Positions 50,695 to 64,000 of a stretch of DNA of 64,000 bases are shown here, one piece after another. The notes beneath the pieces were generated by a model. The model was given only the letters and a program-made list of their open reading frames with translations. It did no database searches and had not been told where the DNA came from. The stretch spans positions 864,001 through 928,000 of the forward strand of contig CBDCOX010000002.1 in NCBI GenBank assembly GCA_965219995.1, written 5' to 3'. Both the position numbers and the translations under genes were made by a program. Positions within the stretch are counted from its first letter, which is position 1, and each line of letters opens with the position of its first letter. The stretch is from Candidatus Latescibacterota bacterium. Its GTDB lineage: Bacteria; Latescibacterota; UBA2968; GCA-2709665.

Positions 50695-51585
50695 ATGCGT
50701 ATATCGGCAACGGGATTGACAAAAGTCTATCCGAAGGGGACTGTACCCGCGCTGAACAACGTCGACCTGGAAATTGGACGGGGAACGTTCGGTCTGCTGG
50801 GCCCGAACGGCGCCGGAAAAACCACGCTGATCAAGGTTCTTTCAACGCAGATGGCGCCAACGGCCGGCCAAGTCAGAATTGGCGCCTGGGACCTGCAGCG
50901 AAACCGTTCCGAAGTGCGGCGGCGGCTGGGCTACCTTCCCCAGCACTTCGGAGCGTATCCGCAACTGACGGCGTGGGAATTTCTGGACTACATGGACCGG
51001 CTGGCAGCCGGGCGACGTCGGATCGGGCGGAGGGCGCGAGTGCGTCGTGCGCTCGAAAACGTGGGGCTTTACGACGCGCGGGACCGACGGACCGGCACTT
51101 TTTCCGGTGGAATGATGCGGCGGCTCGGGATTGCCCAGGCCATTGTCGGCGATCCGGAAATCCTGATTGTGGACGAGCCCACCGTGGGGCTCGATCCGGA
51201 AGAACGCATCCGTTTTCGAGGGATTCTCGCTCGACTGAGCCGGGACAGGACAATCCTGATTTCCACCCATATCGTCGGCGATGTTTCGAGCACCTGCGAC
51301 GACCTGGCGGTGCTGAATGAAGGGCGGATCGTCTACAGGGGGTCGCCCGATGCCCTCGTCGCTCGTGCGGATGACAAGACCTGGCGGGTACGGGCGGACG
51401 ACTCGGAGTTCGAGACGATATCCCGGCGATTTCTGGTTGTGACGGTCGCTGTGGACGGCGGGCGAATGGACCTCCGGTTCGTGGGCGACGGCCACCCGCC
51501 CGCCCACGCCGAACCGGTACCGCCGAACCTCGAAGACGCATACGTGTACTTTATGGGCCGGGAGAGTCAGGAAAGGGCGGCGTAG
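50695..51585 (+). CDS. ABC-2 type exporter ATP-binding protein
   Basis: [32 protein letters not shown]-terminal PNLEDAY. Confidence 0.93.
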   Translation: MRISATGLTKVYPKGTVPALNNVDLEIGRGTFGLLGPNGAGKTTLIKVLSTQMAPTAGQVRIGAWDLQRNRSEVRRRLGYLPQHFGAYPQLTAWEFLDYMDRLAAGRRRIGRRARVRRALENVGLYDARDRRTGTFSGGMMRRLGIAQAIVGDPEILIVDEPTVGLDPEERIRFRGILARLSRDRTILISTHIVGDVSSTCDDLAVLNEGRIVYRGSPDALVARADDKTWRVRADDSEFETISRRFLVVTVAVDGGRMDLRFVGDGHPPAHAEPVPPNLEDAYVYFMGRESQERAA

Positions 51586-51588
51586 GCC

Positions 51589-54500
51589 ATGGAGACGGTT
51601 TATACCGTATTGTCGGTCGCCAGATACGAGCGCAAGATGCTGATGCGGACGATCCGATTCCGTATCCTGGGTGGAATCGGCGTGCTCATTCCCGTTGCTC
51701 TGGGCGTCGGCCTGGCGATCGCGGAATCCAGGGGCATCGCATTCGAGTCTGTCAGCGGCATCGGCGCCTATATGCCCTTTTTTGTCTACAGTCTGCTGCA
51801 GACCGTCGTGATCGCGTTTATCGTCGGTGATTTCCGCGCCTCGGACGAGCGCGCCGGAATCTACGAAGTGGTTGCCGCCCGGCCGCTTTCTACAGCCGAA
51901 CTGGTCATGGGCAAATACCTCGGGGTCCTGGGTGCGCTGATTACGCTGAGCCTTGTCGTGCTGGTGCTCAGCCTGGCGGTGCAGGCGGCCAAGATCAGCG
52001 TTACCGGCGCGCCGTTTGCGATCCGACCCTATCTGACGTACCTGCTGCTGCTGAACCTCCCCGGGCTGGTCTATATGTCCGCTCTTACGTTTTTCCTCGG
52101 GGCGGTATTTCGCCGGCAGGCTGCGGTGACCGTGCTGACCATCGCTTACGTCCTGATCGTCCTGCTGTTTCTTGGAAGTCGATACGGCGGCATCTACGAT
52201 TTCGGCGCATTCTTCGCCCCGGTGTTCTACTCGGATATGCTCGGCCTTGGCGATATCCGGAAGGTGGTGGAGATCCGGGTCTTCTACACGTTTCTCGCCC
52301 TGTTTTTCTTCGGTTTGTCTATCGACCGGTATCCACGGCTTCCGCAGTCCCGGGCCTGGCGCAGGTTCGGTCGATGCCTGACCGCCGGCGGTCTCGTCGC
52401 CGCGGTGTGCCTGTACGCGTATATGGTAGGGCGGGACTCGTCAGACCTCGACTACCGGATGGCGCAGCTGGAAGTTCAGGAAGGAATCGCCGGGCAGCCA
52501 ACGTCGGCTGTTACGCATTACGCGCTCGACCTGGACCTCGCGAATGACCGTACGCCGCTGCAGGGCAGGGCGGTTCTCAGCGTTTCGAACCCTCATCCCG
52601 TAACGCTCGACACGCTCGTTTTCAGTCTCAACCCCGGACTGGAATTGCGTTCGGTGAATGCAGTTGAGGAAAAGGGCGCTGAAATCAGTTGGCAGCGCGA
52701 GTATTCTGTCGTGAGAATCGCCCGTCCGCTCCAGCCCGACAGTCTGGCGACGTTGGAGTTCGTATACGACGGCTCGATCGACCTCAGCGGATTCGATCTG
52801 AGGCGTCAACCGGAAGCAAGACGTTTGCAGAAGCGGCGAACGGGGCCGGGACGGAAGGGGGACCTGACCGCCTGGATCCGCCGGAATTCCGTATTCCTGC
52901 CGCCACGCAGCAGGTGGTACCCCTCGCCGGGCGTGGACTACGGTCATCAGGAAGGCCGACCCCAATCCTTCGCCACCGCAGATCTGGATATTGCGCTTCC
53001 CGAAGGACTGGAAGTCGTGACCCAGGGTGTGCCGGTGGGCCGGAAGAAAGAGGGCGGCCGCGAGGTTCATACATGGAAAGTGGAACGCCCCGTACCCGTT
53101 CTCTCGCTCAACGCGGGCGTGTACCATGTTTTTCAGGCCGAAGTCCACAATATCCAATGCGCCATATACGTGCATCCGGCCCACGCCAGGCAGGTTACCT
53201 TCTTCCACGACGCCAGGGACGACGCATTGAATACGCTGGGCGAGATCCTGGATAGCGTTGAACAGGAAACCGGCCTGCCCTATCCGTACCAGCGCCTGTC
53301 GGTTGTGGAGGTGCCATTCCAGGTACAGTGGTATTACGACGGATGGGAGGAAGCCGGCGGATTGGTGCAGCCCGGCGTGCTGATGCTTGAAGAGGACGTC
53401 CTGATGCGGCTGAATCTGCAACGTCGTCTGAAGTGGATGCAGCGGCGACAGCGACGTAACGACGACCCGGGCAGAATCAAGCGGGACCTGCTGGTCAGGA
53501 CGGTGCTGAACACGTTCCTCGCGCGGGAATCGACTCAGAGCGGCATCTACAGGAGTCCGGTTGCGCAACTCTGGTCGTTCAACCGGGGATTCGAAGGCGA
53601 ACACTATTCCCTGCTCAAACGCGGCATGCCAGTCTATATGCAGCAGAATCTCGGGACCACACTGCAACAGAGCTTCTACTCGAGGCGAGGACGATTTCGA
53701 GGCCGGTTCCGGCGGAACAGGGGGGCGCGCGGCGTTTCCTGGGATACCGTAACGGCCAGGATGCGGCAGCGTTCTTTCGCGGAACTTGACCCGACTGCCG
53801 ACGCGGAACTCTACCGGGCGGTCGTCGACGCCAAGGGCGCCTCCATGTTCGGGATGATGCAGGCCGTGGTGGGTGAAGACGCATTCAGAGACGTGGTCAG
53901 CGGATTCGAGGAGGCGAGCCGGCACGCGGGCGTCGACTTTGCGTCGTTTGAGCGCGCGGCTGTTGGCGATTCGTCGAAGCAGGCGGATCGGCCCGGCCTG
54001 AATCGACTCGTCCGGGACTGGCTTCACGGCACCCAGGTCCCGGGCTACACCCTGACAAGGGCAAAAGCATATAAGGTGGACGACGGATGGGGCATGATGA
54101 CGTATCAGGTCATCGTGCGTATCCGGAACGGCGAGCCGGGGCGCGGATTTGTCCAGATTCGAGCCATGGGAACCGAAGACGAGGCGGTAAAGGGCGTTGA
54201 GATCGAGGGCGGGCAGGAAGTTGAGGTGGGGCTGATCCTCTGGGAACGGCCTTCGAGGATAAGCGTCGAGCCGTTCTTTGCCCGCAACCGCCGGGTCCTG
54301 ATGGCGCCGTTGCGCATACCCGAGCAGCCGATGGATGGATCCGCCACGACCTATGTGAGGGAGGTCGCTCCGGACGAGACCGGATTGACCGAGATAATTG
54401 TGGACAACGATGACGAAGGCTTCGAAATGCCAGTCCGCCGGGTGCGGCGTTATCTCCGGCCGCAGTTGAAAGGCGACAACTGGCAGGAACGCCAGATGCC

Positions 54501-54951
54501 ATTCTCGTTCGGCAGGTACGAAAACAACTACAGGTGGAAGAAACCGGGCGATGGCGCGCAGCCGGCCGTCTGGACGGCCCGATTGCCGCATGGCGGGGAT
54601 TACGACGTCTACTATTATTTCCTTCATCCCAGGTTCTCAAGGCGCATGCGTATGGCGTCGGAATTCAGTCTGGCCGTCAGTTACGGCGGCGAGGTGGATA
54701 CGCTGGCGGTCGAATCGAACAACCTGAAGGCCGGCTGGAACGTCCTGGGACGATACCGGTTCGAGGGCGGAGAACTGGCCCGGGTCGAGCTGTCCGACCG
54801 CGCCAACGGCCGCCTCTACGCCGACGCGGTGCGCTGGCGATACGTGGATCCCGACCATCCGGAAGAGGTGTACGAAGAGGATCTGCCGTCCTGGAATTTC
54901 GGTCGCGGCGGCGGCCGGGGCGGCGGATCGTCGCGTGGGAGAAGCTGGTAA
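51589..54951 (+). CDS. ABC-2 permease fused to an M1-peptidase-like domain lacking HEXXH and a golvesin/Xly-CBD-like C-terminal domain
   Basis: About 7 TM segments with RPLS..ELVMGK; FSLNPGL, WYP, YPYQRLSVVEVP; C-terminal IIVDNDD...GDYDVY...GWNVLGRYRF...ADAVRW. Confidence 0.75.
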   Translation: METVYTVLSVARYERKMLMRTIRFRILGGIGVLIPVALGVGLAIAESRGIAFESVSGIGAYMPFFVYSLLQTVVIAFIVGDFRASDERAGIYEVVAARPLSTAELVMGKYLGVLGALITLSLVVLVLSLAVQAAKISVTGAPFAIRPYLTYLLLLNLPGLVYMSALTFFLGAVFRRQAAVTVLTIAYVLIVLLFLGSRYGGIYDFGAFFAPVFYSDMLGLGDIRKVVEIRVFYTFLALFFFGLSIDRYPRLPQSRAWRRFGRCLTAGGLVAAVCLYAYMVGRDSSDLDYRMAQLEVQEGIAGQPTSAVTHYALDLDLANDRTPLQGRAVLSVSNPHPVTLDTLVFSLNPGLELRSVNAVEEKGAEISWQREYSVVRIARPLQPDSLATLEFVYDGSIDLSGFDLRRQPEARRLQKRRTGPGRKGDLTAWIRRNSVFLPPRSRWYPSPGVDYGHQEGRPQSFATADLDIALPEGLEVVTQGVPVGRKKEGGREVHTWKVERPVPVLSLNAGVYHVFQAEVHNIQCAIYVHPAHARQVTFFHDARDDALNTLGEILDSVEQETGLPYPYQRLSVVEVPFQVQWYYDGWEEAGGLVQPGVLMLEEDVLMRLNLQRRLKWMQRRQRRNDDPGRIKRDLLVRTVLNTFLARESTQSGIYRSPVAQLWSFNRGFEGEHYSLLKRGMPVYMQQNLGTTLQQSFYSRRGRFRGRFRRNRGARGVSWDTVTARMRQRSFAELDPTADAELYRAVVDAKGASMFGMMQAVVGEDAFRDVVSGFEEASRHAGVDFASFERAAVGDSSKQADRPGLNRLVRDWLHGTQVPGYTLTRAKAYKVDDGWGMMTYQVIVRIRNGEPGRGFVQIRAMGTEDEAVKGVEIEGGQEVEVGLILWERPSRISVEPFFARNRRVLMAPLRIPEQPMDGSATTYVREVAPDETGLTEIIVDNDDEGFEMPVRRVRRYLRPQLKGDNWQERQMPFSFGRYENNYRWKKPGDGAQPAVWTARLPHGGDYDVYYYFLHPRFSRRMRMASEFSLAVSYGGEVDTLAVESNNLKAGWNVLGRYRFEGGELARVELSDRANGRLYADAVRWRYVDPDHPEEVYEEDLPSWNFGRGGGRGGGSSRGRSW

Positions 54952-54995: not shown

Positions 54996-56072
54996 TTGAA
55001 CAGGCGATTCCTGAACGATTCCTGCATTGCATTCACGGCTGTTGTCGTTATGGCCGGCTGCGGCGGGCAAACCGAGCAGCGGTCCGTGGACCTGACCGTC
55101 CCCGTCACCGTCCAGGCCGTTCGCCTGGACACCATGGAGGCGACGGTGGCGGCCACCGGTACGCTCCGGCCCTCCCGGGAGGCCCGTATACAGACCGAGG
55201 TCGAGGGTATACTTCAATATGTCGCGCGGGGCGTCGGCGGACGACCGAACGAAGGAATGCGGGTCACCCGGAACCAGGAGATTGCCCGGCTTGTGAACAA
55301 GGAGCTGGTCGTGAACGCGCGCCTGGAATCCCGGCAACTCGCGCGCGCCACCGCGAAACGAACGCTGCGCGAGCAGGAGGTACTCGTTGAACGAAGACTG
55401 GGCACGGAGAGAGACCTGGACGAAGCCCGCCGCGCCCTCGCCGAGGCCGAATCCAATTACGAAGACGCGCTCGTTCAAATCGCCAAGACGACGATCCGGA
55501 CGCCAATCAGCGGTTTTCTGACGGGTTTGGCCGACATTACCGAGGGTACGCTGGTGGAAGCCCGAACGACCATCGCTACCGTGATGGATTACAGGCAGGT
55601 GCTCGTCGATCTGAAGATTCCGAACGCCTATATCGCATCCGTTTCACCCGGCCAGGTCGTGCGAGTGGAAAACTATGCATTGCCCGGAAGGCGGTTTCTG
55701 GGAACCATCAAGGTGGTTGATCCGGCCATCGATCCGACCACGCGTACCTTCCGGGTCGTTGGGGTCGTGAAGAATCCGAACCTGATGTTGCGACCGGGCA
55801 TGTTTGTGAAAGCCGAGATTGTCACGGAGTCACACGAAGACGCGGTGGTGATCCCTCGCCGCTTTGTCCTGACCCGCCAGAATCGCAAAGTGGTGTTCGT
55901 GGAAGAGGAGGGGAGGGCGCAGATGCGCGACGTGGAACTGGGGCTGGAGGGCCCAGAACAGGTCGAGATTCTGGAAGGGCTTGAAGCGGGCGAGCGCCTC
56001 ATTACCAGCAATTACGAGACGCTGCGCCCCCGTACCCGCGTGCGTGTTACCGGCGTGGGCTTGCAGCAATAA
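54996..56072 (+). CDS. RND periplasmic adaptor (membrane fusion protein), lipoprotein
   Basis: GAGGT RBS plus TTG start, MAGC lipobox, IRTPISG, DPTTRTF, LRPGMF, GLEAGE. Confidence 0.88.
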   Translation: MNRRFLNDSCIAFTAVVVMAGCGGQTEQRSVDLTVPVTVQAVRLDTMEATVAATGTLRPSREARIQTEVEGILQYVARGVGGRPNEGMRVTRNQEIARLVNKELVVNARLESRQLARATAKRTLREQEVLVERRLGTERDLDEARRALAEAESNYEDALVQIAKTTIRTPISGFLTGLADITEGTLVEARTTIATVMDYRQVLVDLKIPNAYIASVSPGQVVRVENYALPGRRFLGTIKVVDPAIDPTTRTFRVVGVVKNPNLMLRPGMFVKAEIVTESHEDAVVIPRRFVLTRQNRKVVFVEEEGRAQMRDVELGLEGPEQVEILEGLEAGERLITSNYETLRPRTRVRVTGVGLQQ

Positions 56073-56229: not shown

Positions 56230-56303
56230 GATCTTGATCCGTCACTTCTCGGGGACGTCAATTCGAGTATGTGCAAGCGGATCTCATTCAAAGGGCCGAT
56301 ACA

Positions 56304-59300
56304 ATGCCATTGCCCGAATTTTCGACGAAATACCCGGTAACGGTTGCCATGGCAACGCTGGCCGTCGCGCTCCTGGGCTGGATTTCGCTGGAGCGGCTGG
56401 AAGTGGACCTGTTGCCCGACCTGCGTTCTCCCGTGGTTACCGTGGACCTGCGATTTCCGGGCAAAACCCCCATGGAGATGGAGGAACGATATGCGCGTCG
56501 GCTGGAAGGGGATATCGGCACGGTACGCCACGTCAAACGCGTACATTCCGTGTCCCGTTCCGGGCAGGCCGTGGTGATCGCGGAATTCGAATGGGATGCG
56601 GACATGGATTTCGCCCTGCTCGACGTGCAGAAGAAGGTGGCGCGGTACGCTTCGGATCCCGATATCACGAGTCTGGACGTCACACAGGAAGACCCCCAGG
56701 CGTTGCCGGTGATGCGCCTGGCCGTCTCCGGAGCGGACTGGCAGGATCCGGATGAATTGCTGGGCAACGCGGAAACCGTCATCCGGCCCAAACTCGAGGG
56801 GTTGTCCGGGGTGGCTTCGGTGGAAATCGAGGGAGGCGCCGAGAAAGAAATCCGGATCACACTGGATTCCTATCTCCTTCAAGCATTCGGCGTCAACTCG
56901 GAGACGGTCGTCTCACGGATACGCGAGGCCAATTCGGACGTCTCCGGCGGAACGTTGAAAGACGGACAACGTTCCTATCTGGTAAAAGGCCTGGGACGTC
57001 TGACCGACTTGACAGACGTGAACAACCTGGTTGTGGGTGAGCGCGGGGGCGAATCTGCGACTGGCGAGAACGACGCCTCGACCCAGCGCGTGCCTGTCAC
57101 GGTGAGCGACGTGGGTACCGTCGGCCTGCTTTATAAGGAGAGGGAAACCATCGTGCGCCTCGACGGCTTCGAGTGCGTCGGACTCTCCGTTTACAAGGAA
57201 GCCGGCGCGAATACCTCGTCGGTGGTCAAGGGGGTTCTCCGGGAACTGGAAAGCCTCGAGGCCGATCTGACCGGCATCCGGTTTACGGTGGTGGAGAACC
57301 AGGCCCGTTTCGTCGAACGCGCGGTGAGTGAAGTGGAAGAGGCGGCCGTTCTTGGCGCGCTGCTTGCGGTGGGCGTGCTTCTGGCCGCGCTCCGGCAGTG
57401 GACCGCCACGCTGGTGATCGGACTTGCCATTCCGATTTCCGTTCTGGCCACGTTCACGCTGATGTATTTCCAGGGGCTGACGCTGAACATCATGACCCTC
57501 GGCGGCCTGGCGCTGGGCGCCGGCATGCTGGTGGACAACGCCATTGTCGTGATTGAGAACATCTACCGGCACCTCGAGAGGGGAGAAACGGCCGCAGAAG
57601 CCTCCGTCAGGGGCGCGAGTGAGGTCGGGGTCGCGATTCTGGCGTCCACGCTGACCACGGTGTCCGTATTTCTGCCCATTGTCTACCTTCACGGGTTGGC
57701 CGGTGAACTCTTCAGGGAACAGGCCTGGACGGTTGCGTTCTCACTGGTTTCGTCTCTCGCGGTGGCGATGACCGTGGTACCCATGCTGACCGCCCGGCTT
57801 TTCAGGCGGTATCCTCGACGATCCGCAGGGATCGCGGGAGCACGGTCCTTCAGGCGCTTTCTGGGCCGGTCGCTCAACCATAAGGGCCGCACGATGGCGG
57901 TGCTCGCGGCCTGCCTTCTGGCTGCCTTCCATATGGCCCGGTCCATCCATACTTCTTTTATTCCCACGGAAGACGAGGGTGTCCTTCACGTGGACCTCGC
58001 GCTGCCGGAGGGCACAAGACTTGAGTCGACAGACAGGGTGGCGAGGCGCGTTGCCGCCATTACGCAGGCGGTTGCCAGAGAGGAAGCGCGGCACATCTAC
58101 CTGCGCGTGGGAACCGATCCGAACCGGTTTACCGCCGTGGGAGAACCTACGGGCCCGAACAGAGCCGAGCTGACGGTCGTGCTGAGCCGACAGGCGGACC
58201 GTCGCGGCGTCTCCGAACTCACCACGGTTCTGGATGCAGCCCTCCTGGAAGTCCCGGACGTTAAGGTTAATTATCGGCTTCAAAAGGCTGCATTGGAAGG
58301 ACTTATACGAGGTGCAACGGCGCCGGTCCAGGTCGAGGTCAGCGGCGAGAACCTGGAACTGCTTCAGGAACTGACCGCAGATCTGAAACGGCGCATGGAC
58401 GCGTTGTCCACGGTATACAACGTGCGGAGCAGCTTCCAGGACGGTCAGCCCGAGGTGGACGTTGTGCTGCGGCCCGACATCACAGCGGCGTTCGGGCTGA
58501 CCTCGCAGAATCTCGTGCGAGAGCTGGAGCGCAGGCTCGGCGGCGAGGAAGCCGGAGAACTCTCCAAGGACCAGCGGGCGCGAACGATCCGGGTGGGTTT
58601 CGAGGACGTGGACCTTCGGGAGCTGCAACACGCGAGAATCGACGGTCCCGACGGGGCGATGCTCACGCTGGGAGATCTCGCCGACCTTCGGGTCGTACAG
58701 GGCCCCAGGGAAATCCTGCGGGACGGGCAGCGCAGGGTGGGGCGGGTGTCCGCGTTCCTCACCGACGGGGTGGTCTTGAGCCAGGCGGCAACGCAGATCA
58801 GGCAGGCGGTGAGACAGATGGCCATCCCGCACGGATACCAGGTGACCATAACCGGCGAGGAACGGGAGCGGGCCGAATCATTCGGCGGCCTGCAATTCGC
58901 CCTTCTGCTTTCGGTGGTGCTCGTCTATATGGTCATGGCTTCGCTCTTCGAGTCTCTGCTCCATCCGTTTACCGTCATGCTGACGGTGCCGCTGGCGGGC
59001 ATTGGCGTGGTGGTCGCATTCTGGAGCCTGGGAGAAGCGTTCGGCGTGATGGCGTTCATCGGCGCGATCATGCTGGGAGGTATCGCCGTCAACGACGCCA
59101 TCATTCTGGTGGACCACATCAACCAGTTGCGGCGCGAGACGGACGACGTGCGACAGGCCGTACTCCAGGCCGCGCAGGATCGGCTGCGTCCAATCCTGAT
59201 GACCAGCGCCACGACCATTCTGGCGCTGTTGCCGATGGCGGTGGGCGTCGGCGAGGGAGCGCGCCTCCGGGCCCCGATGGCGGTGGCCGTTATCGGCGGT

Positions 59301-59387
59301 CTGGTCACATCCACATTGATGACCCTTGTGGTGATTCCCGTCGTTTACGAACTGATCGAAGGGCTCAGAAGGAGGAGGGCGGCGTGA
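56304..59387 (+). CDS. RND efflux permease (AcrB/AcrD/AcrF family)
   Basis: YPV..LPDL, AIPIS, GMLVDNAIVVIENI, ASTLTT, FES, GIAVNDAI, RLRPILMT. Confidence 0.93.
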   Translation: MPLPEFSTKYPVTVAMATLAVALLGWISLERLEVDLLPDLRSPVVTVDLRFPGKTPMEMEERYARRLEGDIGTVRHVKRVHSVSRSGQAVVIAEFEWDADMDFALLDVQKKVARYASDPDITSLDVTQEDPQALPVMRLAVSGADWQDPDELLGNAETVIRPKLEGLSGVASVEIEGGAEKEIRITLDSYLLQAFGVNSETVVSRIREANSDVSGGTLKDGQRSYLVKGLGRLTDLTDVNNLVVGERGGESATGENDASTQRVPVTVSDVGTVGLLYKERETIVRLDGFECVGLSVYKEAGANTSSVVKGVLRELESLEADLTGIRFTVVENQARFVERAVSEVEEAAVLGALLAVGVLLAALRQWTATLVIGLAIPISVLATFTLMYFQGLTLNIMTLGGLALGAGMLVDNAIVVIENIYRHLERGETAAEASVRGASEVGVAILASTLTTVSVFLPIVYLHGLAGELFREQAWTVAFSLVSSLAVAMTVVPMLTARLFRRYPRRSAGIAGARSFRRFLGRSLNHKGRTMAVLAACLLAAFHMARSIHTSFIPTEDEGVLHVDLALPEGTRLESTDRVARRVAAITQAVAREEARHIYLRVGTDPNRFTAVGEPTGPNRAELTVVLSRQADRRGVSELTTVLDAALLEVPDVKVNYRLQKAALEGLIRGATAPVQVEVSGENLELLQELTADLKRRMDALSTVYNVRSSFQDGQPEVDVVLRPDITAAFGLTSQNLVRELERRLGGEEAGELSKDQRARTIRVGFEDVDLRELQHARIDGPDGAMLTLGDLADLRVVQGPREILRDGQRRVGRVSAFLTDGVVLSQAATQIRQAVRQMAIPHGYQVTITGEERERAESFGGLQFALLLSVVLVYMVMASLFESLLHPFTVMLTVPLAGIGVVVAFWSLGEAFGVMAFIGAIMLGGIAVNDAIILVDHINQLRRETDDVRQAVLQAAQDRLRPILMTSATTILALLPMAVGVGEGARLRAPMAVAVIGGLVTSTLMTLVVIPVVYELIEGLRRRRAA

Positions 59388-62300
59388 TTCTCCCCGATCT
59401 TGCGGTCCGGCGCCCTGTAACGACGTCGATGTTCTTCGCCGCATTCGCCATATTGGGAATCGTGTCGTGGACTCGGCTTCCGGTACAGCTCTTTCCGGAG
59501 CTGATCTTTCCGGAGGTGTTCGTCACGCTGTCGCTGCAGGGGGCCTCTCCTGAACAGGTGGAACGAGATCTTCTGATTCCCGTTGAAGGGGAGATCGGCA
59601 AGCTGGACGGCGTCCAGGAGATGGAGTCGTTCGCGATGGCCAACAGGGGGGGTATTCGTATATCCTACGCGCCCGACGTGGATATGAAATTCGCCCTTCT
59701 TCAACTGCAGAGCAACCTGAACAGATTGCAGCCGACGCTGCCCGAACGTACTCAGTCCGACGTCAGGAGGTTCGATTCGACGGATCTCAGCAGCAGCATT
59801 ATGGAGCTTCACGTGCTCGCCGACTGGGACCTGAACCCGTTGCGGGAGTTCACGGAGGAGAAAATCCGGCCCAAGCTGGAGTCTGTCGACGGTGTCGTCA
59901 ATGTGTCCGTATTGGGCGGACGGCGCAGCGCCGTGGAAATCGTCCTGGATCCGTTCCTGCTGGAGGCGCATGGCCTTTCGACGGGACAGGTTCGGGCACG
60001 CCTGAACAGCTATAACCGGCGGCGTGAGTACCTGGGGCGTGTATACGAAGGGAATCGGGCCTATTCGGTGAGCATTCAGGGGCAGTTTACGGACCTGCGT
60101 CAGATTCGCGATCTCGTCCTGAACGCGGACGGCACGCTCAGGCTGGGCGACGTTTCCCGGGTGGGATTCGGACTCCAGGATCAGGCCGATCGTCACAGAG
60201 TCAATGGAAGACCGTCGGTGGGCGTCCGGATCCAGAAGGACGACGAAGCAAATCTGATCGAGGTTGCCGCGGCGGTCGAAGCCGCCATCGGCCGTCTGAA
60301 TCGGGACTTCGCGAGCGAGGGTGTGGAACTGGGCGTGAGTTCCTCACAGGCGGATCTGATGACCGGAGCGCTTTCCACCCTGAAGCAGGCGGCCATTGCC
60401 GGCGCCGTGCTCGGACTGATCGTGCTCTTTCTGTTTCTTCGGAACCTTCGCTTCGTCTCGGTCCTCCTGCTTGCCATTCCGATTTCTCTCCTGATGACCT
60501 TCAATCTGATGTACCTCGGCGGACTGTCCGTCAACGTGCTGTCTCTGTGCGGTCTCGCCCTGGCGATGGGCATGCTTGCTGACAACGGCATCGTGGTGAT
60601 GGAGAACATCTTCAAACACTACGAGCGTGGCAAGTCGCCCGCCGACGCGGCACGGGACGGGGCGGCCGAGGTCGGGCGGGCCGTGGTTGCGGCAACCGCA
60701 ACCACCGTAACCGCTTTCCTGCCGGTTCTGTTCATCGAGAGCGACGCGCGGGACCTGCTGCGGGAACTCGCGTTGTCCATGGCGTTTCCGCTGCTGGCGT
60801 CACTGCTGGTGGCCCTGACGCTGGTTCCGGCCCTCGCCGTACGGGCGCTGAGCCGCGGGGTCCGGCAGCCGCCCGACGTTCGCGGGTTGCTCGAGCGGTA
60901 TACGCTGCTGCTGAAGACTGCGCTGCGTCACCGCGCATCGGTGGTCCTGTCCGCAGGGGTGGCGCTCGCGCTGACACTCGTGCTGGCGTTCTTCTACCTG
61001 CTGCAACAGCAGGTGCGCAGGGAGGAGACACGTTTTACGGTCTACGTGAACCTTCCGGAAGGGGCCACGCTGGACGCGACGGACGAGGTCGTGAAACAGG
61101 TGGAAGCGTCCGTACGGGATGTGCCCGGTCTGGACCGGTTTACGACGTCGGTCCGTGAGGCGGAAGCCGACGTGAACGTATTGCTTGACAGACGTTCTGA
61201 CCGGCCAGGCGGCATCTCGCTGGATGAAATCAAAGAGCAACTCGACGACAAACTGCAGAATGTACAGGGAGGTGTTGTCGGATACGAACCCAGGCCCCGT
61301 GCGGGGAGGGGCGGCCGCGGGCAGGGGATCGGTCAACGTCGGAGACGCAGTTCAGGTGGATTCGATCTGACCGGGGCCACGCCGAACGAGCAGGTTGTGG
61401 TTCGAGGGTACGACTTTACGATACTGACGATGATTGCCAATGACCTGGTTTACCGCCTCGAAGAACTGGAGGAGGTGGATGCCAACAGTGTGCGCGCCGA
61501 CGCCGAACGGAGTTCGCCCGAGGTGCAGGTGATACCCGATGCGGCCGCCCTGTTCGACCGGCGACTTGGCGCACAGGAAGTGCTCGCCGCCATGGGTGAC
61601 ACCCGTTGGGACGGGTTTCGCACAACGGTCCCGTTCCTGCTGCCCGATGCAACCGAGGTACCCATCGAAGTGCGTACGATCGAAGAGGAGGAACGCGACC
61701 GGTACGGGCTGGCTGAGTTCAGGCGTTCACGCATTCTGAACCGGGACGGGCATTTCGTACCGCTTTCCGAAGTGGCGAGGGTCCGGACGGATGAGGGACG
61801 GAGCAGCCTGTTGCGGACCGACCAGACCCGTCGGATTGTGGTTTCCTACCGGTTTCCTTCGGAGATTCTGGATTCCCAGCCGCGTTTGGATCTTGCGAGA
61901 CGGGTCGTGCGAACAACGCTGCAGGACATGGTTCTGCCGGAGGGGTATTCGATCGAAATCATCGAGGCGCACGAGGAGATGATCTACTATTGGATGATGG
62001 CGATCGCCGCGGTCCTCATCTATATGATTCTGGCGTCGTTGTTTGAATCTTTCGCCTCTCCGGTCATCATTCTGTGTACGCTGCCGCCCGCGGCCATCGG
62101 CTCCTGCTGGGCGCTGATGATGTCGGGCACGGGCCTCAGCCAGCAGGAGGGTCCCATGGCGCTTCTGGGCTTTATCGTCCTGCTGGGCATTGCGGTAAAC
62201 AACGGAATCATCCTGATCGACGCGGTCGGCGTGCTCAGGACCCGATTCGGCTTTCGCCGGGAACGCGCGGTGCTGACCGCGGCGCGGTCGCGTGTTCGAC

Positions 62301-64000
62301 CCATCCTGATGACAACGGCCACGACGCTTCTGGGCGTTCTTCCACTGGCGCTCGAATACGGCGGCGATTTTGAGATCTGGCCACCTTTCGCAATTACCGT
62401 TCTGGGCGGGCTTTCGGTATCCATGGTCTCCACGCTGATCCTGATTCCGGTGGTATACATGGGGCTGGATCAGATCCGCGCCTGGCTTGCCGACATGGGG
62501 GTTATTGCCGTCACGCTGTCGCTGCTGGCGACTGCCGCGGCCGGCTACGGAGTTTACGTCAGGTATGAAAGCGTTTTCTGGGCTACTCTGTCGATTTTAC
62601 CCATCTGGTGTGCATTTCTTACGGCGGTATGGATCGTCCTGAGGGTACATCGCGCTCGAGTCGCAGCCCGGCGCGCATCCGGCGCCGTTCATTCCATTCA
62701 GCTGAGAAATCTTACCAAGGTTTACGGCGCGCCGGGGCGCTTTGTACGGGAGTGGGCACGCAATGAGCGCCGGCGAGGGCGGTTGATGGAAACCGGGCCG
62801 GGTCCACATGACCGCAAGGCGGTTCGTGACGCGCTCATCTGGAAGCTGCCATTGCTCGCGCTGTTATCGGTCTTCACGACCTATTTCGAGGACGAAATCT
62901 GGATCTATCTACACGGGCTGGCGCTGGCATTCATGCTTTGGCACGTGGGTCGATGCGTCGGAGAACTGAGGGAAACGCAATTTCCGGCGCCGATCGCCCG
63001 CATTGGCAATCTGCTGCTCAAAACCGTGCTGCCATTGACGTTTGTCGCTTATGTGCACTGGCGGCTGAACCTGCTCTCGGTCACGCTTGCCTCGTTCGGG
63101 CTATGGGCGGCCTATCGGCTGGTGCGGCGGCTCGCCGACAGGGTGCGTTCGGGGGAGATCAATCCCGACGGACTGTCCGGACGTTTCGCGCGGCCGCGCC
63201 GGTGGTGCTATCGGTTGGCCTCGGCCATGCCGATCGTCGGCGTTCCCCGGCCGGAATTTCGGGCGCTGGCGGGCGTCAATCTGGAAATCGGCAGGGGGAT
63301 GTTCGGACTTCTGGGTCCCAATGGCGCCGGAAAGACCACACTGATGCGCATTCTCTGCCGGGTACTCGAACCCAGCTACGGCTCCATTCTGATCGACGGT
63401 CGAAACATCCTGAATCGGGAGTCGATTCACGGTCTGATTGGCTACCTGCCGCAGCACTTCGGCAACTACGGACACCTTTCCGCATACGAGTATCTGGAGT
63501 ACCGGGCGCTTCTGGAGGGCTACAAGGACCGGAAAACCCGCGACGCCCGGGTGATCGAATCTCTGGAACAGGTCAATCTGATCGAACGGAAAGACGATCC
63601 CGTCGGCTCCTTTTCAGGCGGAATGAAGCAGCGCCTCGGCATCGCTCAGACCCTCCTGCACACCCCGCGGATCGTGGTGGTGGACGAGCCCACGGCGGGG
63701 CTCGATCCCCTGGAGCGCATCCGGTTCCGAAACCTGCTTGCCAGGTTGAGCCAGGATCGCATTGTCATTTTCTCCACGCACATCGTGGAAGATATCTCCG
63801 GTAGCTGCAATCGCCTGGCAGTGCTGGACCAGGGGTGTCTTCTGTATACGGGAACGCCGGTGGAAATGAGGAATCTGGCGAAAGGACGGGTGTGGGACGC
63901 GGTGGTTTCGGAGGGGCGCTTTTCCGGGATGGAGGACGAACTGAGGCTCATATCACATCAGCGAACCCCCGCTGGAGTCCGGATGCGGTTCCTCTCGGAA
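59384..64000 (+). CDS. RND permease - extra TM - ABC ATPase fusion protein (at least 1539 aa, runs off the window)
   Basis: GTG overlapping the upstream TGA, with GGAGG RBS. RND motifs GMLADNGIVVMEN, GIAVNNGI and RVRPILMT. The 62462-63340 junction was translated by hand with no stop. Then [24 protein letters not shown] and STH. Confidence 0.9.
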   Translation, partial: MILPDLAVRRPVTTSMFFAAFAILGIVSWTRLPVQLFPELIFPEVFVTLSLQGASPEQVERDLLIPVEGEIGKLDGVQEMESFAMANRGGIRISYAPDVDMKFALLQLQSNLNRLQPTLPERTQSDVRRFDSTDLSSSIMELHVLADWDLNPLREFTEEKIRPKLESVDGVVNVSVLGGRRSAVEIVLDPFLLEAHGLSTGQVRARLNSYNRRREYLGRVYEGNRAYSVSIQGQFTDLRQIRDLVLNADGTLRLGDVSRVGFGLQDQADRHRVNGRPSVGVRIQKDDEANLIEVAAAVEAAIGRLNRDFASEGVELGVSSSQADLMTGALSTLKQAAIAGAVLGLIVLFLFLRNLRFVSVLLLAIPISLLMTFNLMYLGGLSVNVLSLCGLALAMGMLADNGIVVMENIFKHYERGKSPADAARDGAAEVGRAVVAATATTVTAFLPVLFIESDARDLLRELALSMAFPLLASLLVALTLVPALAVRALSRGVRQPPDVRGLLERYTLLLKTALRHRASVVLSAGVALALTLVLAFFYLLQQQVRREETRFTVYVNLPEGATLDATDEVVKQVEASVRDVPGLDRFTTSVREAEADVNVLLDRRSDRPGGISLDEIKEQLDDKLQNVQGGVVGYEPRPRAGRGGRGQGIGQRRRRSSGGFDLTGATPNEQVVVRGYDFTILTMIANDLVYRLEELEEVDANSVRADAERSSPEVQVIPDAAALFDRRLGAQEVLAAMGDTRWDGFRTTVPFLLPDATEVPIEVRTIEEEERDRYGLAEFRRSRILNRDGHFVPLSEVARVRTDEGRSSLLRTDQTRRIVVSYRFPSEILDSQPRLDLARRVVRTTLQDMVLPEGYSIEIIEAHEEMIYYWMMAIAAVLIYMILASLFESFASPVIILCTLPPAAIGSCWALMMSGTGLSQQEGPMALLGFIVLLGIAVNNGIILIDAVGVLRTRFGFRRERAVLTAARSRVRPILMTTATTLLGVLPLALEYGGDFEIWPPFAITVLGGLSVSMVSTLILIPVVYMGLDQIRAWLADMGVIAVTLSLLATAAAGYGVYVRYESVFWATLSILPIWCAFLTAVWIVLRVHRARVAARRASGAVHSIQLRNLTKVYGAPGRFVREWARNERRRGRLMETGPGPHDRKAVRDALIWKLPLLALLSVFTTYFEDEIWIYLHGLALAFMLWHVGRCVGELRETQFPAPIARIGNLLLKTVLPLTFVAYVHWRLNLLSVTLASFGLWAAYRLVRRLADRVRSGEINPDGLSGRFARPRRWCYRLASAMPIVGVPRPEFRALAGVNLEIGRGMFGLLGPNGAGKTTLMRILCRVLEPSYGSILIDGRNILNRESIHGLIGYLPQHFGNYGHLSAYEYLEYRALLEGYKDRKTRDARVIESLEQVNLIERKDDPVGSFSGGMKQRLGIAQTLLHTPRIVVVDEPTAGLDPLERIRFRNLLARLSQDRIVIFSTHIVEDISGSCNRLAVLDQGCLLYTGTPVEMRNLAKGRVWDAVVSEGRFSGMEDELRLISHQRTPAGVRMRFLSE

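Follow-up and report, generated by a model that had tools for sequence, protein, structure and literature searches.

A conserved single-chain fusion of an RND permease and an ABC ATPase in Latescibacterota and other bacterial phyla

The stretch analysed here, 64,000 nucleotides from a Candidatus Latescibacterota bacterium (assembly GCA_965219995.1, contig CBDCOX010000002.1, positions 864,001 to 928,000 of the forward strand; henceforth the window), ends inside a gene that joins a resistance-nodulation-division (RND) permease to an ATP-binding cassette (ABC) ATPase in one polypeptide. In double-membraned bacteria the main multidrug and envelope exporters are RND pumps, which are regarded as strictly proton-driven; ABC exporters are strictly ATP-driven. 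We conclude that the fusion is a real, ancient, single-chain gene that combines two known kinds of machine, the tripartite RND pump and the ABC exporter. To our knowledge, neither the covalent link between an RND protein and a nucleotide-binding domain (NBD) nor the insertion of membrane helices inside that NBD has a known precedent.

The fusion frame and its spread

The frame begins with a GTG at 59384 on the forward strand and remains open through the end of the window; in the genome sequence it continues for 31 further codons to a stop 96 nt beyond the window, giving a gene of 1570 residues (a chain of about 170 kDa) at window-equivalent 59384-64096. A listing of open reading frames (ORFs) shows the frame from 59384 only if open-ended ORFs are allowed. 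Pfam recognises both parts in the single chain: ACR_tran (PF00873) at residues 5-1027 (E = 2.4e-181; 605.4 bits against a gathering score of 28), which at profile positions 3-1019 of 1021 is full-length, and ABC_tran (PF00005) at residues 1297-1438 (E = 6.6e-28; 98.4 bits against a gathering score of 25), with Walker A, Q-loop, signature, Walker B and H-loop all present. The chain matched only ACR_tran, MMPL, ABC_tran, AAA_21 and AAA_23 in Pfam, and no MacB or FtsX domain was found there.

Residues 1-1034 (59384-62485) form the RND module, henceforth RND2, with 12 transmembrane (TM) helices and periplasmic domains; its closest solved relative is MdtB (9lyq_B, E = 8e-86). Two extra helices, TM13 and TM14, follow at 62495-62560 and 62573-62641, as seen by hydropathy and as AlphaFold2 (AF2) helices 11-32 and 35-68 of the C-terminal module (C-module). 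Because the loop after TM14 holds 10 Lys or Arg residues, the two helices bring the chain back to the cytoplasm. The NBD core and the start of a C-terminal domain then fill 63254-64000 and run on to window-equivalent 64093, ahead of the stop that ends at 64096. An earlier note on the window, made from its letters, had described a full AcrB-like permease, two more TM helices and an intact NBD in one frame, which it called missed by the ORF track, perhaps because the frame is open-ended. Pfam and hydropathy agree with this description, and the motif positions given in that note proved exact: ADNG in TM4 at 60578, RPILMT in TM11 at 62297, Walker A at 63314, the FSGGMKQR signature at 63611, Walker B at 63671-63694 and the H-loop at 63770, with the RND part ending near 62463-62485.

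Two further features of the chain were seen. A Gly/Arg-rich loop of 15-30 residues in a periplasmic domain (61301-61387, fusion residues ~640-668) falls opposite a gap near AcrB 668-675 in the alignment; all 8 fusion rows shown have it, and it is found neither in AcrB nor in RND1, the permease encoded immediately upstream. The fusion ends in a Cys (...GQPC, L004:5086-5097, L004 being the locus that carries this gene beyond the window), as do 24 of 123 family members.

The earlier note had conceded that a stop or frameshift between the RND and ABC parts, or confinement to this assembly, would undo its account. The close relatives and the DNA runs show no such break, and the fusion is not confined to this assembly. 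Comparison of the full 1570-residue query with the open frames of 41 genomes of the same order (this genome counted) recovered a single stop-free full-length frame in 35 of them, at 96% down to 59% identity; two other relatives carry fusion copies cut by contig ends, and four have no fusion-length match. Contigs from three independent DNA runs over 61800-63900 show substitutions only and no indel, and one contig of 3271 nt covers this whole interval ungapped. A contig from an RNA library (X19) also crosses the border between RND part and linker, with 44 substitutions that mark it as coming from a relative; it was not used, an RNA library being no proof of transcription.

Database searches carried the fusion far beyond this assembly. 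Using residues 1035-1570 as query and considering long proteins only, we found PF00873 together with PF00005 in 120/120 of the best homologues listed, most of them 1486-1646 residues long, with source names from Gemmatimonadota, Latescibacterota, Acidobacteriota and KSB1. A separate genome scan added fusions from Bacteroidota, including the cultured Marivirga tractuosa, Draconibacterium mangrovi and Parabacteroides massiliensis. The names that such proteins bear in databases are automatic ('efflux RND transporter permease subunit', 'AcrB/ABC-type ... ATPase subunit'). Searched against 1.84 billion cluster representatives, the linker matched 52 clusters, of which 18 have representatives of 1550-1590 residues, all with the linker at ~1025-1316, and 34 have representatives below 1480 residues. 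Within its own phylum the linker occurs in 84/168 genomes and in 34/52 high-quality genomes.

At 18 distant loci, the frame is open from the end of the RND part to a stop past the NBD in 16 and open to the contig end in one. In L031, from a metagenome-assembled genome, a stop lies 18 codons past the RND part (L031:9920-9973) and the NBD is in another frame. Selection speaks to the same question: among nine genes of the same genus (36 non-independent pairs), dN/dS was lowest in the RND part (0.07) and the NBD (0.10) and reached 0.16 in TM13-14 with strand 1 of the NBD and 0.27 in the insert described below, showing that all parts of the fusion are under purifying selection.

We also looked for C-modules that stand without an RND part. 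The linker was matched by no more than 17 shorter proteins, and 11 short sequences were inspected. Eight short linker proteins (P0127, P0131, P0134, P0135, P0140, P0141, P0158 and P0167) begin in the RND part, in TM14 or in the insert and are not shown to be free-standing genes; the contigs of P0131 and P0134 measure 27 kb and 7.4 Mb, so that these two are not obviously cut by contig ends. P0153 looks chimeric, while P0175 (526 residues), with a Met start at TM13, could be a free-standing C-module. As a separate observation, P0128 (3.95 Mb contig) and P0129 (458 kb contig) have lost most of the RND part and kept the NBD module intact, a piece of the periplasmic domain being joined straight to the end of TM14; these may be decaying copies.

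The two engines and the split nucleotide-binding domain

On the ABC side, all 123 full-length fusions have Walker A, the SGG signature, the H-loop and Walker B including its Glu; the Q-loop and the A-loop each occur in 122/123. On the RND side, we mapped relay residues by alignment to Escherichia coli AcrB, whose proton-relay residues are D407, D408, K940, R971 and T978. The TM4 Asp (D407; residue 400 of the fusion) and the TM11 Thr (T978) are kept in 123/123 fusions and the TM11 Arg (R971) in 122/123, and the positions of D408 and K940 are both Asn in 123/123. The suggestion of the earlier note that proton coupling may survive thus keeps its footing in the TM4 Asp and the TM11 Arg and Thr, but with D408 and K940 both replaced the case is weaker than was stated.

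Four stand-alone RND paralogues in the same genome carry the fusion's relay signature, and the AcrB-type Lys940 is present in 0/12 RND paralogues of this genome. Since stand-alone paralogues have the same signature, it is a trait of the subfamily and not an effect of the fusion, and on the same ground we rejected the idea that fusion had caused the loss of a proton relay. Judged by sequence, the RND part looks like an ordinary member of a little-studied subfamily, and this subfamily as a whole seems to use a relay unlike that of the AcrB model. Proton coupling of the RND part is plausible by analogy. Five of the 12 RND paralogues have Asp-Asn in TM4 and Asn-Asn in TM10; in the fusion gene the corresponding sites are at 60578-60589 and 62192-62206.

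The NBD itself is split, a feature that the earlier account had not included. Its detached first beta-strand with the A-loop (IQLRNLTKVYG, 62696-62728) has its counterpart at the N-terminal end of a free ABC ATPase whose gene starts at 50695 (henceforth A); there the sequence reads RISATGLTKVYPKG. Between this strand and the rest of the NBD lies an insertion of ~175 residues (62729-63253) made of a basic helix, four hydrophobic helices of 24-27 residues and a short helix. As a result the A-loop motif is 195 residues from Walker A in this fusion, compared with 23 in A; across 122 fusions the spacing is 180-276 residues (median 196), and the contiguous hairpin of A-loop, strand 1 and strand 2 is absent. 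The Lys and Tyr of the detached strand are invariant in 26/26 aligned C-modules and the motif is recognisable in 122/123 fusions; its Tyr is presumably the A-loop residue that stacks on adenine.

AF2 modelling of the C-module from a 26-row alignment (mean pLDDT 81.2, pTM 0.62) yielded a beta-strand at residues 1104-1114 (C-module 75-85) and the next strand at 1292-1303, with six helices between them (C-module 90-108, 112-135, 142-167, 173-199, 202-226 and 240-252). The four insert helices of 24-27 residues overlap two hydrophobic stretches found family-wide. DSSP assigns a strand only if it has a bonded partner strand, and apart from the detached one the model has strands nowhere but in the NBD; most likely, therefore, the detached strand is docked in the model onto the NBD sheet.

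The nearest solved NBDs by sequence are those of ABCA4, ABCA7, ABCA1 and ABCA3 (E = 1e-55 to 1e-47), and the nearest folds are TM_1403 (4yer), NosF and ABCA. By contrast, nothing resembling the insert was found. Pfam at E<=1 returned no match to the insert/linker in two of three sequences and a sub-threshold DUF4271 match in the third; Foldseek gave no fold match to the insert, its alignment covering only the NBD part (TMq ~0.4); and the best ESM Atlas score, 0.76, is in the range of noise. In database searches with the linker, the insert was essentially confined to fusion-length proteins. The linker/insert is a module without a family name, and we know of no NBD in which membrane helices are placed between the A-loop and strand 2.

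The gene cluster and its partner proteins

The fusion is part of a cluster with the order A (ABC ATPase), B (ABC-2-like permease), in the Bacteroidota cluster examined an outer-membrane factor (OMF), a membrane fusion protein (MFP), RND1, the fusion and F, all those of this genome lying on the forward strand. A (50695-51585; Pfam ABC_tran, E = 8.7e-32) is the top match of the fused NBD in its own genome, at 241.7 bits against 132.5 for the next. A quick maximum-likelihood tree (as all trees here, with SH-aLRT support) sets 12 rows of fused NBDs together with 4 rows of A ATPases apart from the 14 next-best NBDs of the genome (SH-aLRT 99). A lies directly 5' of B in 3/3 Bacteroidota genomes. A terminator-like hairpin, no more than a weak consensus match, precedes A in the window.

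B (51589-54951) is a membrane protein of 1120 residues whose N-terminal TM domain is ABC-2-like; it also has a region resembling M1 peptidases and a Golvesin_C domain. In Pfam, Golvesin_C scores E = 2.7e-15, and ABC2_membrane_3 (E = 1.2e-6) and Peptidase_M1 (E = 0.0012) both stay below cut-off; no NCBIfam family matched. The sequence has neither HExxH nor GxMEN, which makes an M1 peptidase activity of B doubtful. B was found in 36/41 relatives, always upstream of the fusion, and in 3/3 Bacteroidota genomes. It is present in all 35 relatives with a full-length fusion and in G018, whose fusion copy is cut by a contig end; it was not found in the four relatives that lack a fusion-length match, nor in G036, an 82% complete genome with its fusion in two contig pieces. 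A and B are co-inherited with the fusion, B from Gemmatimonadota to Bacteroidota.

The MFP, a periplasmic adaptor (54996-56072), scores 192 bits with NCBIfam RND_mfp TIGR01730 (cut-off 94.9) and matches Pfam HlyD_D23. RND1 (56304-59387; ACR_tran, E = 3.3e-224) is the second RND permease of the cluster; we take the ATG at 56304 as its start, the listed ORF beginning earlier, at a GTG at 56271. The RND1 stop and the fusion start overlap by 4 bases (GTGA). RND1 and the RND part of the fusion are 35-37% identical and are encoded by adjacent genes in the relatives, and they are not sister groups in a tree that unites the fusion RNDs (20/20 rows, SH-aLRT 100) and, separately, the RND1 proteins (7/7 rows, SH-aLRT 100). 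The order MFP, RND1, fusion, F is kept in 17/17 distant loci with enough flank. In the Parabacteroides cluster B and the MFP gene are separated by an OMF gene (L025:939-2438). The pair of RND genes has an adaptor gene two genes upstream of the fusion and, in the Bacteroidota cluster examined, a nearby OMF gene.

Protein F, encoded beyond the window (L004:5091-5813, window-equivalent 64090-64812, forward strand), is a membrane protein of 240 residues with about six hydrophobic segments. Its GTG start overlaps the fusion stop (GTGCTGA) and is preceded by a GGAGG motif. In a profile search that scored 8000 database candidates, 3710 proteins matched F at E <= 0.001; the best 120 listed are ~239 residues long, have no Pfam domain and, where named, are called 'hypothetical protein'. 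F and the linker/insert are two unannotated protein modules. We predicted the complex of the C-module (541 residues, 26 rows) with F (240 residues, 19 rows) and obtained a score of 0.58 (runs 0.59, 0.56 and 0.58), with the best of 3 controls at 0.00, at least 83% of contacts shared between runs and a partner pLDDT of at least 72. The mark that this score reaches is also reached by 58/80 solved complexes and 2/110 mismatched pairs, among which 7/80 and both mismatches score at or below 0.60; the prediction is weak support, and we did not count it as evidence.

Beyond F, on the minus strand and converging on the end of the cluster, lies a gene for a CdaA-type diadenylate cyclase (DAC and CdaA_N domains; L004:5861-7213).

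Proposed export relay and its alternatives

How might a chain of this kind work? We propose that it is a covalent tether that joins an ATP-driven inner-membrane module to an RND/MFP/OMF pump driven by the proton motive force (PMF), forming a two-engine export relay; we hold this reading tentatively, at slightly less than an even chance. The RND subunit of the tripartite pump is tied through TM13-14 to an ATPase of the ABC-2/ABCA-like class. The ATP-driven module, comprising the NBD and the six extra helices and probably F, would take substrate from the cytoplasm or the inner leaflet and pass it directly to the proton-driven RND1/RND2 pump, which would expel it via the MFP and the outer-membrane channel. 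As partners of the NBD, the six additional helices of its own chain and F, which is translationally coupled to the fusion, are the likeliest; B, which is co-inherited, may also take part. The RND1/RND2 pump is probably heteromeric. If one RND1 and two fusion chains formed a heterotrimer, it would bring together precisely as many NBDs as an ABC engine requires, namely two, and would reconcile three-fold with two-fold symmetry. We infer the physical assembly, stoichiometry, direction of hand-over and energy sources of the relay.

Of the two ideas put forward in the earlier note, the tether to an ABC-2 permease is the one that we favour, although with another partner, the six helices of the fusion itself together with F, which lay outside its view as did the end of the gene. 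A dual-energised machine is plausible as two engines in one assembly, whereas strict mechanical coupling of the two is distinctly unlikely, as set out below.

Known systems lend the proposed relay its parts. MdtB2C is a 2:1 RND heterotrimer in which energy and substrate roles are separate, according to PMC4338810, and MdtABC/MuxABC-type pumps, like the cluster studied here, have an MFP gene followed by two tandem divergent RND genes. The likeness of RND1 and the fusion to such a heterotrimer is one of gene arrangement, the two RND genes lying in tandem and overlapping by 4 nt, and of co-inheritance. The same paper describes inner-membrane transporters that feed trans-envelope pumps of the AcrAB-TolC type, with one step over the inner membrane and expulsion from the periplasm by the RND pump (PMC4338810); those networks consist of two separate, unlinked proteins, while here they would be one polypeptide.

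Several points weigh against the proposed relay. With Asn at the positions of both D408 and K940 in every fusion, PMF coupling has to be assumed by analogy. F did not reach the Pfam cut-offs for ABC2_membrane_3 (PF12698; 18.8 bits against 27.2) or ABC2_membrane_2 (PF12679; 17.1 against 31.6), and at E<=0.01 only 2/19 and 1/19 F members, respectively, matched these families, all below cut-off. Comparison of F with the TM domain of B by hhalign detected no profile similarity (probability 0.6%). Given these sub-threshold matches and the lack of similarity to B's TM domain, F may not be an ABC permease. No OMF gene was found within the cluster of this genome, which has seven elsewhere. The 1:2 ratio of RND1 to fusion chains is pure inference, and since A is its closest paralogue, the fused NBD could pair with A rather than with a second fusion chain.

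This last point leads to the alternative that survives best, a single machine with a heterodimeric ABC engine, in which A forms a pair with the lone fused NBD of a (RND1)2(RND2::NBD)1 trimer, B and F serve as the TM partners and the seven-gene cluster makes one complex. We regard it as unlikely. In its favour, tree and score alike make A the closest paralogue of the fused NBD and vice versa (SH-aLRT 99; 241.7 against 132.5 bits), and both have been in the cluster since before the split of Gemmatimonadota and Bacteroidota. B tracks the fusion in 36/41 relatives, including all 35 with a full-length copy; B and F are without detectable paralogy, as expected of two different halves; and the 2:1 ratio has its precedent in MdtB2C, as described in PMC4338810. 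However, the motifs are fully canonical in both NBDs, leaving no degenerate site, and A-B by itself looks like a complete ABC-2 pair. A degenerate site is a frequent but not an obligatory mark of ABC heterodimers.

A true hybrid engine would go further: ATP binding and hydrolysis at the NBD, which its own inserted helices would anchor in the membrane, would be passed via TM13-14 and the inserted helices to the RND TM domain and would drive, assist, prime or gate the RND cycle. The covalent linkage of constant length in all full-length members, the conservation of TM13-14 and the inserted helices under purifying selection, and an RND part without two of the five classical AcrB relay residues are all consistent with such an engine. 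Yet stand-alone RND paralogues, which lack an NBD, share the fusion's relay signature, and the constant presence of a dedicated small membrane protein, F, points instead to a conventional ABC partner. We know of no coupling helix for an NBD in RND proteins, and consider this alternative distinctly unlikely.

That the NBD acts as a sensor instead of a motor, reading the ATP level or dimerising to switch pump assembly without any transport of its own, is more improbable still. The domain C-terminal to the NBD does resemble the regulatory domains of TM_1403 and NosF-type ATPases, and an ABC permease domain is recognised neither in the chain nor clearly next to it, but 122-123/123 fusions keep the H-loop, the Q-loop and the catalytic Glu that follows Walker B, as is typical of hydrolysing NBDs coupled to TM domains. 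Finally, an assembly or annotation artefact joining two genes through a lost stop or frameshift, for which the stop in L031 and an apparent split in G084 (locus L101) might speak, is refuted for practical purposes by the frames open in 35/41 relatives and in 16/18 distant loci plus one open to the contig end, by three independent DNA runs without an indel and by selection across the junction (dN/dS 0.16-0.27), the split in G084 being a 10-N scaffold gap and the RND1 gene adjoining the L031 fusion being broken as well.

The fusion departs from each system that it recalls. Its best-scoring NCBIfam model, NF033617 (RND_permease_2, a multidrug efflux RND permease subfamily), gives 522 bits with a cut-off of 1250, so that it is no member by that threshold, and the MdtB and MdtC equivalogs (NF007798 and NF007905) give 336.8 against 1584 and 366.7 against 1774. 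Neither Mdt subunit has an NBD or extra TM helices; furthermore, the fusion has Asn at D408 and K940, and RND1 and RND2 are not sister paralogues. In MacAB-TolC, too, a permease carries its own ATPase and spans two membranes together with an MFP and an OMF, as described in passages of PMC8277102. MacB, however, is a four-helix FtsX-type permease with a periplasmic domain and an N-terminal NBD, while the fusion has a 12-TM RND part and a C-terminal NBD, and does not have the features of a MacB-type protein. The core of the fused NBD is closest by sequence and fold to the ABC-2/ABCA-like (type V) exporters (ABCA1/3/4/7, NosDFY, DrrAB and GldA). Its best NCBIfam models are DrrA (TIGR01188; 167.7 bits against a cut-off of 312.45) and GldA (TIGR03522; 158.6 against 402.6), yet it falls below both, and unlike those exporters it carries a membrane insert and has a neighbour, F, without a Pfam family. 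A full-text literature search found no description of an RND-NBD fusion; subscription journals and supplements were outside its coverage, so an earlier mention is possible. The list of non-typical pumps in PMC4338810 includes no NBD fusion, and the passages of PMC8277102 treat MacB-type fusions and MdtBC and no RND-NBD fusion.

Together, a conserved chain that welds RND to ABC, within a conserved seven-gene cluster, is present in at least five phyla. It offers a system for testing whether inner-membrane transport and outer-membrane expulsion are physically coupled, and a natural test of how a two-fold ABC engine docks on a three-fold RND pump. Since cultured, non-pathogenic hosts such as Marivirga tractuosa and Draconibacterium mangrovi carry it, the system is testable now. 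Should the hybrid engine prove true, ATP would power, prime or gate a pump family so far known only as proton-driven.

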